Shown piece after piece: positions 46,041 to 57,895 of a stretch of 64,000 nt of DNA; within the stretch, counting starts at the first letter, position 1, and the number at the start of each line of letters is the position of its first letter. This stretch comes from Candidatus Eiseniibacteriota bacterium (GTDB taxonomy: Bacteria; Eisenbacteria; RBG-16-71-46). The stretch spans positions 288,001 to 352,000 of the forward strand of contig CAVQXP010000002.1 of NCBI GenBank assembly GCA_963717935.1. Reading direction: 5' to 3'. The notes under the pieces are model-generated. The model was not told the DNA's origin. It made no database searches and saw nothing but the letters and a program-made list of their open reading frames with translations. Both the position numbers and the translations under genes were made by a program.

Positions 46041-46069
46041 TTGAGTGCCCGGCCGATTGTGGCTATTCT
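46041..46069 (+). promoter_or_regulatory. sigma70-type promoter upstream of csrA
   Basis: TTGAGT-N17-TATTCT. Confidence 0.5.
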
Positions 46070-46074
46070 CGCGT

Positions 46075-46101
46075 TAAGTCGTCTGCAGTCCAAGCCGATA
46101 C
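46075..46101 (+). promoter_or_regulatory. sigma28 (FliA)-type promoter upstream of csrA-flgM
   Basis: TAAG-N15-GCCGATAC, near-consensus with canonical spacing. Confidence 0.75.
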
Positions 46102-46156
46102 GCTAGGTGATGAAGGGGTGACGGCTGCCCCGTAGAGGCGCGGAGGTAGCTCCAAG

Positions 46157-54042: not shown

Positions 54043-55858
54043 GACCGGAGCGCTCGGGGCCGACGAGAACCGTCCGCTTCCAGGTCCCGCGACCGTGGTG
54101 GGTGGTGGACCGCCTGCGCGCCTGCTCGTCGTCGACGACGAGACCACCGTGACCGAGCTGCTCCAGGAGTTCCTGACGACGCTCGGCTACGAGGTCGAGG
54201 TGGCCGCGAGCGGTGAGGCCGCGGTGGCGCGCATCCCCGTCTTCCGTCCCGACGCCGTGCTCTCGGACCTCAACATGTCGGGACTCACGGGTCTCGACGT
54301 GATGCGCTTCGCCCGGGAGGCGGACGAGGAGACGGTGGTCATCCTCATCACGGGCGAGACCACGACCGCGGTGGCCATCGACGCGATGCGCCAGGGGGCC
54401 TACGACTACATCATCAAGCCCTTCGAGCTGGACGACGTGCAGGGCAGCGTCGAGCGGGCGCTGGCCAACCGTCGCCTGCGCACCGTCAACCGTCAGCTGG
54501 TCGAGGAACTGAGCCAGAAGAACGAGATCCTGAGCCACCACGAGCAGGAGCTGCGCGAGCAGGTCCGCCTGGCCACCCAGCAGATGAGGACTCTGTACGA
54601 GGTGGGCAAGGAGATCAGCGAAGACCTCGAGCTGGGCCCGCGGGTCGCCACCGTGGCCATGAAGGCCGCCGAGCTGTCGGGCGCCCGCGCCACCGTGGTC
54701 TACCTGCGCGTCGAGGAGACCGAGGAGTGCCGCGTGGCGGCGGTGCACGGCCTGGAGGTTCCGCACGGCGAGGCCGACCGGGTGCATTTCTTCGCCGCCG
54801 AGCGGGCCATCGGTTTCGACCACCCCGACTACCGCACCGTGCGCCGCCTGGCCTCGCCGGAGCAGCCCATCGAGTTGCCGCTCCTCGGCGGGCGGCGGTT
54901 CGAGTCCCTGCTGGCGCTTCCGTTCCTGCTGTCGGCGGATCAGCAGGTCTTCGGCCTGCTGGTCATGCTGGACAAGCCGGGCGGGTTCAGCGTGGCCGAC
55001 GAGAAGTTCCTCGAGCTCTACGCGTCGGAAGCCGCCATCGCCGTGCACAACTCGCGGCTCTACGAGCATACGCGCGTCCTCGATCGCCTCAAGTCCGAGT
55101 TCGTGGCGGTGGTCTCGCACGAGATCCGCACGCCGCTCACCTCGGTCAAGGGGGCGGTCGAGCTGCTCACGGACGACCGCTACTTCCAGAACAGCGAGCA
55201 GCAGGCCAAGCTGCTGAACATCGCCCACGCCAACGCCGAGCGGCTGCTGGTGCTCATCAACGACATCCTCGACTTCTCCAAGCTCGAGTCCGCCTCGCTG
55301 CCGATGCGCATGGAGGTCGAGAGCCTGGAGCCGGTGGTCCGGCAGGCGGTGCAGAACCTGCGCACCCTGATCGCGGAGCGGCACATCGAGCTCGACTGCG
55401 TCTTCGAGCCCGGTCTGCCGGACCTGCTCATGGACTCGAACCGCATCGCGCAGGTGCTCACCAACCTGCTGTCGAACGCCATCAAGTTCTCGCCGCCCGA
55501 AGGGCGCATCGAGGTGCGGGCCGAGACGGAGGGCCCCATGCTGCGGGTGAGCGTGCGCGACTGCGGCGAGGGCATCGCGCCCGGGGACATCCCCAAGCTC
55601 TTCCGCAAGTTCTCGCAGATCGACAGCGGCTCCACGCGCAAGGTGGGTGGCACGGGCCTGGGCCTGGTCATCTGCAAGGGGATCGTCGAGCAGCACGGCG
55701 GCACCATCGGCGTCGAGAGCGTGCCGGGCGAGGGCAGCAGCTTCTACTTCCTCCTGCCGCGGTCCGGACGCGCAGCAGGAGGAAGCCAGGCGACGCGCGC
55801 CCGGGGTCCAGGGCGCACGCCGCCTGAGCCGGGCAGGTCCTCTCGACGGGAGCCTTGA
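54032..55858 (+). CDS. REC-GAF-histidine kinase
   Basis: LLVVDDE, SDLNM, DYIIKPF; VSHEIRTPLTSV, NLLSNAIKFS, DCGEGI, GGTGLGL. Confidence 0.92.
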   Translation: MSTETGALGADENRPLPGPATVVGGGPPARLLVVDDETTVTELLQEFLTTLGYEVEVAASGEAAVARIPVFRPDAVLSDLNMSGLTGLDVMRFAREADEETVVILITGETTTAVAIDAMRQGAYDYIIKPFELDDVQGSVERALANRRLRTVNRQLVEELSQKNEILSHHEQELREQVRLATQQMRTLYEVGKEISEDLELGPRVATVAMKAAELSGARATVVYLRVEETEECRVAAVHGLEVPHGEADRVHFFAAERAIGFDHPDYRTVRRLASPEQPIELPLLGGRRFESLLALPFLLSADQQVFGLLVMLDKPGGFSVADEKFLELYASEAAIAVHNSRLYEHTRVLDRLKSEFVAVVSHEIRTPLTSVKGAVELLTDDRYFQNSEQQAKLLNIAHANAERLLVLINDILDFSKLESASLPMRMEVESLEPVVRQAVQNLRTLIAERHIELDCVFEPGLPDLLMDSNRIAQVLTNLLSNAIKFSPPEGRIEVRAETEGPMLRVSVRDCGEGIAPGDIPKLFRKFSQIDSGSTRKVGGTGLGLVICKGIVEQHGGTIGVESVPGEGSSFYFLLPRSGRAAGGSQATRARGPGRTPPEPGRSSRREP

Positions 55859-55942
55859 CCGTCCCGTGCCCGGCGACTAACTTCCCTTCCCAGCGGCCCG
55901 TGACGGCCGCCTTCTCGAGGTAAGGAGCCCGCAGTCCACCCG

Positions 55943-57895
55943 ATGAGCGCCAGGGAAGACGCCACCAACCCCGCGAACGCCCCGCGCCCGCCGCGGCGCC
56001 GGGCGACGCGCGCTCGGCGTGCTCCTGGCGGGTGCCCTCCTGGGCGTCGGGCTCTGCCGGGCGTGCTCGTCCCGAACGCTTCGTCCCCGACGGCATGCCC
56101 GCTCTACGAGGCCCGGGTCCACTGGCAGGGCGGACCGCCCGCCGCCGGGCGAGTGGCCGCGGCCCAGCGTGCCGGCGAGCAGGCCGTCCCCGTCGAGGAC
56201 GGAGGCCGCACGCTGCTCGCCGTGCGCTCGTTCACGGCTGCCGGCACCGAGGCCCTCGCTCGTGATCTGCAGCGCCGGCGCCTGAGCGGCGTGGACGCGT
56301 CGTCCGCGCGACGCACGCGCGGCACGCGCACGATGGCGCGCCGGACTGGCGCCGGACGGGCCGGCGACGCTTGCCGCCCGCGGGCCAGTGCGCCGCGCTC
56401 GTCCGGGCGCGGCTGCTCCTGGCCGCGCTGGTGGACCCGCAGGCGGTCCCGGAGGCCCCCGCGGAGTCGCCGGGCAGCGCGGTCCAGGGCGCACGGCTTG
56501 CGCAGGCCGAGGCCGAGGTCGTGCGCCTGGCGTTGGCCGCCCGGCCGGATTCGCTCGCCTCCGCGCTCACCGTCTGTGCATCCGCCGAGGGGGAGTGGCT
56601 GCGCGCCCTGGCGGTGGAGCCGACACCCGACCCGGGCGCCCGGATCGAGGCGGCGTGGAGGTGGCACGAGCGGTCGCGTGCCACGACGCTCGACGACGTG
56701 GAGCGCGCCCTCGATGGCGACGTTGTCGGAGTCCCAGAGCGATGCGGCGGCGACCGCGGCCTTCGCGCAGGCCCTCTCGCTCGAGCGCATGGCGCCGGAC
56801 CCCTCTGCCGCGCTCTATGTGCACGGCGCCTGGGGGCCGGTGCCCGGGGCGTTCCCCATCGTGGGAACCTGGATCGCGCTCCTCGCCGCCGGCGCGCTTG
56901 CAGGAGCCGCGCTCGGGCTCGTCCTGTGCGTGACGTGGCCATGGCGACGCTCCCGGCCGCGCGCCGCGCACGTGGTGCGCGGCGTCCCGGCGGCGCTGAG
57001 CCCGCACCTCTCCGGCGAGCGTTTCGCGCAGCTGCCCCGTGACGCGCGCCGGGCCTGGGATGCGGAGTTGGGCTGGCTGCACCTCGTGAGCGGGCCGGAC
57101 CCCGCGCGGATCGCGCACGCGGTCGGCACACTTGCCGGCGGGTTCGTCGAGCGGGGCGACCGCGTCCTGCTGGTGGACGCCGGCGAGCGGCTCAGGCTGC
57201 ACGAGCGCTACGGGGGGGACGTGCGCTGGGGGCTCGGCGAGTGTCTGGCGGGGGAGGTCCCGCTGCTCGGGGCGGTGCAGGTCGCAGGACGCGCGGGTTT
57301 CTTCTTCCTCGCCCACGGCGCGCCCGGGCGTGCGGGACGCTGGGAGGAGTTGAGCAGGCTGCTCGAGGACGCGCGCACGCACTTCGACCGGGTGCTTCTC
57401 GCCCTGGACCGGGGGGCCCCGAGAGCGGCAGCGCTGCCGCTTGGTGGGCGGGTCCTCGAGGCGTGGTGGGCGGAGCCCGGTCCGGGCCTTTCGAGGAGCG
57501 CGGTCGCGCTCTCCGAGCGGCTTGGCATCCCATTCTCCTGCTTCGAGTTGAACTGGTTGATGGAGGCGATGATCGAAGCCGAGTCGGCCGCTCGGATGCA
57601 GGCTCCCGATCCGCCACCATCCGGGGACGGGGCCGACGCCGCTCGGCCCGTGGGCCTCGCGGGCGCAGAGGCCCTCGCGCTCGCGGACGCGGGATCCGGT
57701 GAGGAAGTGTTCGAACGGATCGAGGGTGTGGTGGGGTCAGCCGATGCCATCGAAGCGGTCGCCCGCTCCGGTGGCGAAGCGGTGGTGCTAGGCTGCGACC
57801 TCGAGGTGCGGGAGCGCCTGCGTTTCCTGGTCTGGATGCGGCGCGTGCAGGCCGAGCGCCAGGCCGCGGCATTCGAGGCCGGCGCGCGGCACTGA
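55943..57895 (+). CDS. Wzc/BY-kinase-like membrane protein with degenerate kinase domain; N-terminal half frameshifted
   Basis: TM1 (VLLAGALLGVGL), PLYEA, TM2 (WIALLAAGALAGAALGLVL), then GDRVLLVDA..R..LH..YG....GL.ECLAG; Walker A replaced by SGPDPARIA. Confidence 0.55.
   Translation: MSAREDATNPANAPRPPRRRATRARRAPGGCPPGRRALPGVLVPNASSPTACPLYEARVHWQGGPPAAGRVAAAQRAGEQAVPVEDGGRTLLAVRSFTAAGTEALARDLQRRRLSGVDASSARRTRGTRTMARRTGAGRAGDACRPRASAPRSSGRGCSWPRWWTRRRSRRPPRSRRAARSRAHGLRRPRPRSCAWRWPPGRIRSPPRSPSVHPPRGSGCAPWRWSRHPTRAPGSRRRGGGTSGRVPRRSTTWSAPSMATLSESQSDAAATAAFAQALSLERMAPDPSAALYVHGAWGPVPGAFPIVGTWIALLAAGALAGAALGLVLCVTWPWRRSRPRAAHVVRGVPAALSPHLSGERFAQLPRDARRAWDAELGWLHLVSGPDPARIAHAVGTLAGGFVERGDRVLLVDAGERLRLHERYGGDVRWGLGECLAGEVPLLGAVQVAGRAGFFFLAHGAPGRAGRWEELSRLLEDARTHFDRVLLALDRGAPRAAALPLGGRVLEAWWAEPGPGLSRSAVALSERLGIPFSCFELNWLMEAMIEAESAARMQAPDPPPSGDGADAARPVGLAGAEALALADAGSGEEVFERIEGVVGSADAIEAVARSGGEAVVLGCDLEVRERLRFLVWMRRVQAERQAAAFEAGARH

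Follow-up and report, generated by a model that had tools for sequence, protein, structure and literature searches.

Why would a genome with no flagellum carry an ordered set of flagellar regulators? The question is raised by a 64,000-nucleotide (nt) stretch of DNA, here called the window (G000:C2:288001-352000, in contig CAVQXP010000002.1), from a genome of the phylum Candidatus Eisenbacteria. In it, csrA and flgM lie behind a predicted sigma28 promoter and are followed by a PAS histidine kinase, an NtrC-type activator and, behind a predicted sigma54 promoter, an operon that includes fleN and fliA. A preliminary description, made from the sequence alone, had proposed that the control layer of a polar flagellum was kept here without the flagellum and rewired with new parts to drive another programme. 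The source genome (G000) comprises 3.02 Mb in 5 contigs, is 93% complete and belongs to family f1 (f1 to f18 are family codes within the phylum); no paper on this locus was found in the open-access literature. Gene order in relatives shows the block to be the remnant of a native flagellar supercluster that has lost its structural, export, motor and chemotaxis genes by deletion in situ. Our preferred explanation, to which we give a probability of about 70%, is that the sigma28 factor of the native cluster already served non-flagellar genes, so that the block left by deletion would have stayed under selection, and that its output is a pilus-based, polarity-controlled surface programme.

The block is a remnant of a flagellar supercluster

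In the flagellated relative G026 (f3), the locus begins with mglA, flgF-L, fliW, csrA, glycosyltransferases, fliC-S-D, flgM, a PAS kinase and NtrC, continues with a REC gene, a region-4 protein, a second kinase/NtrC pair, flgB to flhF, fleN and fliA, and ends with GAF-GGDEF, hybrid kinase, wzi and valS (structural genes named from sequence and order). This core order recurs in flagellated G044, G089, G105 and G126, with structural genes interspersed, and the window is the G026 gene list minus its structural genes. The core from kinase and NtrC to fliA was also present in loci of f1, f2, f4, f8, f11, f12, f13 (G072), f15, f16 and f17; f7 has it in two separate pieces, and fleN, flgM and csrA have been lost from some lineages. 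Of the two outcomes that would have told against the preliminary description, neither occurred for G000: the block is conserved in relatives, and the genome holds no flagellar set.

All parts that the description named were found at the place and in the order given, the Wzc-like identity being weakly backed, and the two predicted promoters keep their distances from csrA and the REC gene in relatives. Its reading of the REC protein, region-4 protein, GGDEF protein and hybrid kinase as new parts fared less well: judged by gene content, these are ancestral, because they are already in the flagellar cluster of flagellated relatives. Novelty holds for the small hypothetical protein, the DHp-only (dimerisation and histidine phosphotransfer) protein and the Wzc-like protein, which among the loci examined are confined to f1/f2 (the last to f1). 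Nor is the kept pair of the FleS/FleR type, which lies directly before the basal-body operon. The NtrC activator grouped with the upstream activator of flagellated clusters; the flgB-adjacent, FleS/R-like pair forms a separate clade (support 1.0) and has been lost.

Features of the window are listed below, with the same-genus genome G032 as reference for intact gene copies.

39609..39636, minus strand: sigma28 box (18.2 bits) before a multi-PAS hybrid kinase (36725-39391), a predicted regulon member within the window
43839..43868, plus: sigma28-type box before mglA; spacer 17 nt here, 16 in relatives; 11.3 bits here, extra base included, and 17.5 bits for the orthologous G032 box
44143..45191, plus: mglA, small GTPase (PDB match MglA, 3.6e-72); left flank of the ancestral flagellar locus by synteny; frameshift near 44838
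45302..45764, plus: conserved hypothetical gene, frameshifted here; adjoins mglA in flagellated G026 too
46075..46102, plus: predicted sigma28 promoter of csrA-flgM, TAAG-N15-GCCGATAC; 21.0 bits, ~80 nt before csrA, conserved in f1/f2
46157..46405 (end approximate), plus: csrA (PF02599, 1.7e-25); extra base near 46371
46481..46679, plus: flgM orthologue, short (~65 amino acids), conserved only in the C-terminal ~35; extra base near 46490
46700..46730, plus: intrinsic terminator after flgM, closing csrA-flgM
46771..47997 (ends approximate), plus: PAS histidine kinase; several frameshifts here, G032 copy intact
47939..49369, plus: REC-AAA+-HTH sigma54 activator (NtrC-type bacterial enhancer-binding protein), orthologous to the upstream activator of the flagellar cluster
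49778..49793, plus: predicted sigma54 -24/-12 promoter, at the same position in the f1/f2 loci scanned
49830..50231, plus: single-domain REC protein, found in flagellated f3 as well
50231..50539, plus: protein with sigma28 region 4 only, which retains the sigma4.1 core and has another segment in place of the -35 recognition helix; a candidate decoy for FlgM
50536..50793, plus: small hypothetical protein, only in f1/f2 among loci examined; no family in the ESM Atlas (best 0.83)
50793..51740, plus: fleN/flhG, MinD-family ATPase (best PDB match FleN, 9.8e-49)
51751..52638, plus: fliA (sigma28), orthologue of the phylum's native flagellar sigma factor
52635..53051, plus: DHp-only phosphoacceptor (HisKA), only in f1/f2; His conserved in 11 of the 12 shown
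53128..54042 (start approximate), plus: GAF-GGDEF protein; degenerate active site PGARF, RxxD kept
54032..55858, plus: REC-GAF-HisKA-HATPase hybrid kinase, ancestral neighbour 3' of fliA
55943..57895, plus: Wzc-like membrane protein (pseudo-Wzc) with degenerate P-loop; f1 only; frameshifted here; G032 orthologue against Wzc, E 2.7e-4
57925..58863, plus: NAD-dependent epimerase
60528..62040, minus: wzi, which flanks the ancestral locus on the right, as does valS
62350..64000, plus: valS, right flank of the ancestral locus

Directly 5' of mglA, a conserved gene of ~140 amino acids that belongs to no family (43228-43659) occupies the same place in f1, f3, f7, f15 and f16; nothing in the window was recognised as MglB. 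Elsewhere in the window lies an ordinary dcw cell-division cluster, mraZ to ftsZ (14517-31545, named by eye from sequence). Among flagellum-less genomes, fliW stands beside csrA in f8, G041 and G072 and is lost in f1, f2 and f7; no fliW was found in the genome-wide search of G000 for flagellar genes. G041 also keeps flgN and has one weak flagellin-N match.

Frameshifts interrupt five of the genes in the window (mglA, csrA, flgM, the PAS kinase and pseudo-Wzc), all of which are intact in G032. Because the extra bases at 44838, 46371 and 46490 do not appear in contigs from independent runs, the frameshifts checked look like assembly indels rather than decay; the extra base at 43852 is likewise missing from contigs of two runs. 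In six of seven genes, synonymous changes between G000 and G032 at least equal non-synonymous ones. As to expression, 20 runs cover a small share of this stretch, none of them half or more. In one RNA run, from one study, a relative's contig covers 46112-46703, the interval between the predicted sigma28 start and the terminator; such a contig shows neither starts nor levels of transcription and is not counted as support.

The predicted sigma28 regulon includes type IV pilus operons

The block's FliA has regions 2, 3 and 4 of the FliA/WhiG family and exceeds the cut-offs of TIGR02479 (244.7 against 189.6 bits) and NF005413 (226.9 against 201). We scanned G000 with a sigma28 matrix built from 21 sites of other genomes. 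Intergenic boxes of at least 17 bits numbered 16, compared with 0.5±0.7 in 20 shuffles, and those of at least 15 bits 23 compared with 3; sigma28-type promoters are therefore present in the genome, and their recognition by the block's FliA is predicted. The targets were as follows.

Strong boxes: before pilMNOPQ (18.9 bits), lptC-lptB-rpoN (18.9), wza-wzz-flippase (21.2) and csrA-flgM (21.0)
Strong boxes, other targets: two HEAT/HD-domain pairs, five kinase loci, TPR and HEAT proteins
Weaker boxes: before minor pilins (15.4 bits), pilB-pilT-pilC-pilS-pilR (14.3) and mglA

G000 has a type IVa pilus set (PilB, PilT, PilC, PilM/N/O, secretin, major and minor pilins; its PilP had no Pfam match). 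A sigma54 box precedes the major pilin gene pilA. Neither pilA nor clpX of G000 has a sigma28 box scoring more than 10 bits before it.

The link to pili extends to relatives. For pilM, the highest-scoring box in the adjacent 400 nt was significant against shuffles (p<=0.05) in 14 of 29 genomes: 7/18 without a flagellum, 5/9 with the native flagellar cluster and 2/2 with a second cluster type described below. Upstream of pilM, the sense strand beat the antisense strand in 25 of the 29. A pilB box reached the same level in 9/30 genomes, as did 10/153 control upstream regions. In G045, 7 of 10 sites examined (14 listed) lie before homologues of G000 targets, and in f4 the sites lie before clpX-lon, the accB-pilT2 region and a TPR gene that G000 also has. 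In flagellated G006, sigma28 sites occur at motA and fliL. A strict pattern exceeded its reversed control in f1, f2, f4, f5 and f7. Since the pilM box is also found in flagellated relatives, pilus control by sigma28 probably predates flagellum loss and would explain why the regulators were retained.

Several points weigh against this explanation. The matrix sites were picked via a preset sigma28 consensus, which seeds the search. Pilus operons are a minority of the strong G000 sites, many of which precede kinases or genes of unknown function. The pilM box falls short of significance or is weak in 15/29 genomes (all 3 f4 genomes, f9, f16, both f12 genomes and flagellated G026 among them), as does the pilB box in 21/30, and the strict pattern did not exceed its reversed control in f3, f9, f12 or G126. 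Related genomes are not independent observations, and G000 is 93% complete and in 5 contigs.

Three side observations concern sigma28 boxes elsewhere. Boxes precede clpX-lon in G037 (f4; L305) and G036 (f5; L312), and a link to proteolysis is possible. An 18.5-bit box stands before a four-gene operon (L184, G000:C4:1545761-1550344) whose products are a large membrane protein, one that resembles a chaperone and two small exported proteins, with no Pfam usher match; by eye, the operon looks like an adhesive fibre system. A 21-bit intragenic box lies 1482 nt before the same REC gene in G000 (G000:C4:848879) and G045 (L334); in G036, a box lies 87 nt before this gene.

Retention or rewiring?

The alternative that fares best, although we consider it unlikely, is that of the preliminary description: a circuit rewired with new parts after flagellum loss to run a new programme, either envelope polysaccharide or a WhiG-like developmental switch. 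Three proteins found only in f1/f2 fit with this, as do the 21-bit box before the wza-wzz-flippase locus, the number of strict boxes (9-18 per f1 genome against 0-11 in most flagellated genomes) and the csrA-proximal sigma28 box, which occurs in f1/f2 and in only 1 flagellated locus. Set against these, most parts are ancestral and the pilM box occurs in flagellated relatives, which points to retention more than rewiring. Of the outputs suggested, MglA and polysaccharide genes were indeed among the sigma28 targets and no sign of a developmental programme was seen there; the clearest output, type IV pili, had not been named.

The GGDEF protein cuts both ways. The site of an active diguanylate cyclase, GG(D/E)EF, reads PGARF in the window. 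It is intact in 9/9 natively flagellated genomes and degenerate in f1, f2, f4, f7 and f16, as a rewired part might be, but it is still intact in flagellum-less f8, f11, G041 and G072. Because RxxD is kept in f1/f2, the protein there may be a receptor for cyclic di-GMP (c-di-GMP).

The block's FliA is not of the WhiG2 type. WhiG structures were the best PDB matches of the block's FliA. In the accessible part of PMC7005675, WhiG2 is held by RsiG plus c-di-GMP, and its c-di-GMP site comprises Lys57, Gly61 and Arg62 in sigma region 2.1. The corresponding residues are R/E/R in the window and K/D/R, K/D/K or K/S/R in other genomes. The RsiG motif E(X)3S(X)2R(X)3Q/H(X)3D gave one single match, in a 431-amino-acid protein, among 2443 called genes, and no twin motif. 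Control of FliA in the manner of WhiG2/RsiG was therefore rejected, as Gly61 is not kept (Glu here) and a twin RsiG motif was not found.

No flagellum in the source genome, and a second cluster in relatives

Could the regulators serve a flagellum after all, either one missing from the assembly or the second cluster found in relatives? In G000 (93% complete), FHIPEP, flagellin and CheW profiles had no match, whereas control profiles did. In agreement, tblastn searches with genes called in the flagellar clusters of two relatives gave only generic matches, read as F1-ATPase, signal recognition particle GTPase and OmpA-type paralogues. Flagellin, export, motor and chemotaxis genes were thus not found in the genome, in line with a control layer kept without its flagellum, and the native flagellar site is closed in mid-contig.

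A second FHIPEP type is present in 26/86 f1 genomes, including 3/6 of the same genus, and in some f4, f8, f14 and f16 genomes. In 5/5 loci examined it belongs to a second flagellar cluster that has a fliA and a flhF of its own; that of G032 (G032:C1:1660000-1740000) also carries flgM and chemotaxis genes. Its sigma28 boxes resemble those of the orphan regulon, so cross-talk between the two is possible. This frequency, the shared consensus and the incompleteness of G000 lend the idea of a hidden flagellum some weight. However, the second cluster brings its own fliA, fleN, flhF, flgM and activator. Its FlhA and FliA form clades apart from the native ones, the second-cluster FlhA being one clade, and G000 has no structural gene of either cluster. 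The right end of the G032 second cluster had no match that could be placed in G000, so an empty site there is not proven. The block persists beside the second cluster and also in families with no flagellum of any kind: f7 (flagellin 0/41, FliA 39, FlgM 40) and f9 (flagellin 0/5, FliA 5, FlgM 5) keep FliA and FlgM without either cluster, which largely refutes a flagellar role there. Overall, this explanation seems very improbable.

Two further flagellar matches were noted. An f1 genome holds a flagellar contig of 56% guanine+cytosine (GC) (L146, G152:C70), whose FlhA groups with that of E. coli and which is probably bin contamination. In G051, a lone FHIPEP gene (L148:9528-11648), outside the flagellar clades and with no flagellar neighbours, is probably an injectisome SctV; similar second matches occur in other f10 genomes.

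The regulators outlived repeated losses

The FliA query matched 190/201 genomes of the phylum and the FlgM-like profile 171/201, compared with 69/201 for FHIPEP (66 over the cut-off) and 69/201 for flagellin. By our own count, 71 of the 72 genomes that are at least 90% complete and have no flagellin match carry the FliA. An RpoB tree of 28 genomes held four well-supported sister pairs in which native flagella contrast with none: G044/G041, f10/f8, G006/G036 and f5/f4. On this tree f3, f7, f9 and f16 are not resolved in placement, and the divergent second rpoB of G000 was left out. Families f1/f2/f7 add at least one loss, and G072 (f13), not on the tree, is an in-place deletion; the G036 locus itself is outside the loci examined. 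A single loss, with all non-native genomes in one clade, was rejected (log-likelihood difference 506, approximately unbiased test p 6e-6, 28 genomes). Together, gene order and tree imply about six separate flagellum losses.

That the block is a decaying vestige, its regulators the last genes to go, is hardly credible: frameshifts in five window genes, the degenerate GGDEF site and the loss of fleN, flgM or csrA in some lineages would fit decay, but the frameshifts checked are missing from G032 and from contigs of other runs, FliA identity across f1 is mostly 79-96%, the promoter boxes are conserved and enriched, and the same core outlived about six separate deletions.

The second rpoB of G000 (divergent or error-rich) lies on contig C3, which has 64% GC compared with 71% and a stretch in common with C2; C3 is possibly contamination or a duplicate assembly.

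FlgM, FleN and a candidate decoy

FlgM had no Pfam match in G000. Among orthologue fragments, 22/54 matched PF04316 at E<=0.1 (best 9.4e-6), and orthologue L161 matched TIGR03824 at 1.8e-6, below the cut-off. A profile from non-flagellated copies recovered the gene beside fliD in flagellated clusters. A PDB search with the FlgM alignment gave no FlgM match and nothing meaningful. Homology to the FlgM C-terminal domain, together with position in flagellar clusters, thus supports the gene as a FlgM orthologue. Relief by flagellar export has no apparent basis in G000, where no FlhA or other export gene was found. Since FlgM lacks an export route, another form of relief would be needed.

The MinD-type ATPase before fliA is closest to FleN. 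The N-terminal DQAxxL, the FlhF-activator motif of FlhG, is missing from it and from 5/7 natively flagellated copies shown.

The region-4-only protein is closest by profile to sigma28 region 4, with the sigma4.1 core kept and the SESRVSQ helix lost; in the ESM Atlas it falls in generic sigma70-region-4 clusters. As its profile matches sigma factors in 201/201 genomes, its distribution refers to loci examined only, where it accompanies FlgM in f1/f2, f8, f11, f17 and f18. Modelled with the FlgM C-terminus, it scored 0.52, compared with 0.00 for the best control; runs agreed in at least 93% of contacts, and the predicted local distance difference test (pLDDT) score of the partner was at least 69. 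This mark was reached by 116/157 solved complexes and 2/215 mismatches; at scores of 0.60 or less stood 18 solved complexes and both mismatches. The model lends weak support at this score, and the pass may reflect likeness to a known complex, because a sigma28/FlgM structure has already been solved.

We tentatively suggest, while regarding it as rather doubtful, that the protein acts as a decoy for FlgM, binding it and so releasing FliA, and forms a secretion-independent switch made by the sigma54 tier and possibly REC-gated. Such a switch would have been present in the flagellated ancestor and would let the kept FliA/FlgM pair time pilus assembly after loss of the export gate. Against this, f7 and G041 have FlgM but no region-4 gene in the loci examined, and G072 has the region-4 gene with no FlgM detected. 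Furthermore, the same pocket could bind the RNA polymerase flap instead.

A predicted circuit

Building on gene content, order, orthology, repeated loss and motif enrichment, we predict from sequence the following regulation and phenotype. The PAS kinase would phosphorylate the NtrC activator, which would fire the predicted sigma54 promoter of the operon encoding REC, region-4 protein, small hypothetical protein, FleN, FliA, DHp-only protein, GGDEF protein and hybrid kinase. By analogy with its action on FleQ, FleN would damp the activator. FliA would then transcribe pilMNOPQ, pilB-pilT-pilC-pilS-pilR, the minor pilins, mglA and lptC-lptB-rpoN, as well as the wza locus, HEAT/HD-domain pairs and several hybrid kinases. 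Its transcription of csrA-flgM would provide negative feedback, and PilS/PilR with sigma54 would produce the major pilin PilA. In the least certain step, FlgM would be relieved by proteolysis or by titration through the sigma4-only protein. Given the pilM box of flagellated relatives, sigma28 probably served both appendages, which would account for the survival of the regulators through each deletion.

Comparison with known systems

Polar flagella of Pseudomonas are governed by a hierarchy of FleQ/FleN, FleS/FleR and FliA/FlgM. The block resembles this hierarchy in its sigma54 activator, FleN and FliA/FlgM cascade. In contrast, it has no structural targets, and the flagellar order seems reversed, with the pilus machine under sigma28 and the filament subunit under sigma54.

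In PhyR, a sigma2+sigma4-like domain fused to REC sequesters the anti-sigma factor NepR by sigma mimicry. The weaker PDB matches of the region-4 protein include chains 3t0y and 3n0r ('Response regulator'), which we take to be PhyR. As in PhyR/NepR, a REC protein is coupled here to a sigma-like domain that could titrate an anti-sigma factor. Unlike PhyR, the block has separate genes: region 4 alone, in its own reading frame, is closest to that of sigma28 and lacks a fused REC and sigma2, and its candidate partner is FlgM. Alternative sigma cascades operate in other non-flagellated bacteria, namely sigma28/sigma54 in Chlamydia and the hormogonia sigma cascade of Nostoc; to our knowledge, neither involves a flagellar-cluster skeleton.

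According to the accessible part of PMC5655016, non-flagellated Legionella also keep regulators: FliA, FleN and FleS/FleR in a L. longbeachae subclade, and FliA and FlgM in L. oakridgensis, where FlgM is apparently degraded. As far as that text goes, Legionella and Eisenbacteria share regulators that outlast the flagellar regulon and a FliA/FlgM pair without an export gate. The Eisenbacteria remnant differs in being one ordered block that recurs after about six losses in one phylum, in keeping the upstream activator pair rather than the flgB-adjacent one, and in pointing to type IV pilus and mglA genes.

Type IV pili and c-di-GMP enzymes are targets of WhiG in Rubrobacter and other Actinomycetota, according to the accessible part of PMC12871210. 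WhiG resembles the block's FliA as a sigma28-family factor with pilus and c-di-GMP-related targets, which for FliA are predicted. On the same partial basis (with PMC7005675 for WhiG2), Actinomycetota mostly lack FlgM, whereas Eisenbacteria keep it, have Glu, Asp or Ser in place of Gly61 and no twin RsiG motif, and place a sigma54 tier upstream. CsrA proteins of Eisenbacteria are seldom predicted to repress flagellin mRNA in the assay of PMC13443453, in the accessible part of that source.

These precedents in print (PMC5655016 and PMC12871210, in their accessible parts) tell against the preliminary idea of an undescribed system: regulators kept after flagellum loss are known, and the new elements are the repetition across a phylum, a probably ancestral link to pili and perhaps a decoy for FlgM. 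The phylum offers a replicated natural experiment on why regulators outlive their machine: the skeletons left by about six deletions are nearly the same, and the reason is suggested by the pilus target they have in common. For this widespread uncultured phylum we predict surface motility or adhesion that is based on pili and polarised by MglA. The finding also means that fliA, flgM, fleN and csrA do not indicate flagella in Eisenbacteria genomes. Finally, the region-4 protein is a candidate for secretion-independent relief of FlgM, a point that the accessible part of PMC5655016 leaves open for L. oakridgensis.

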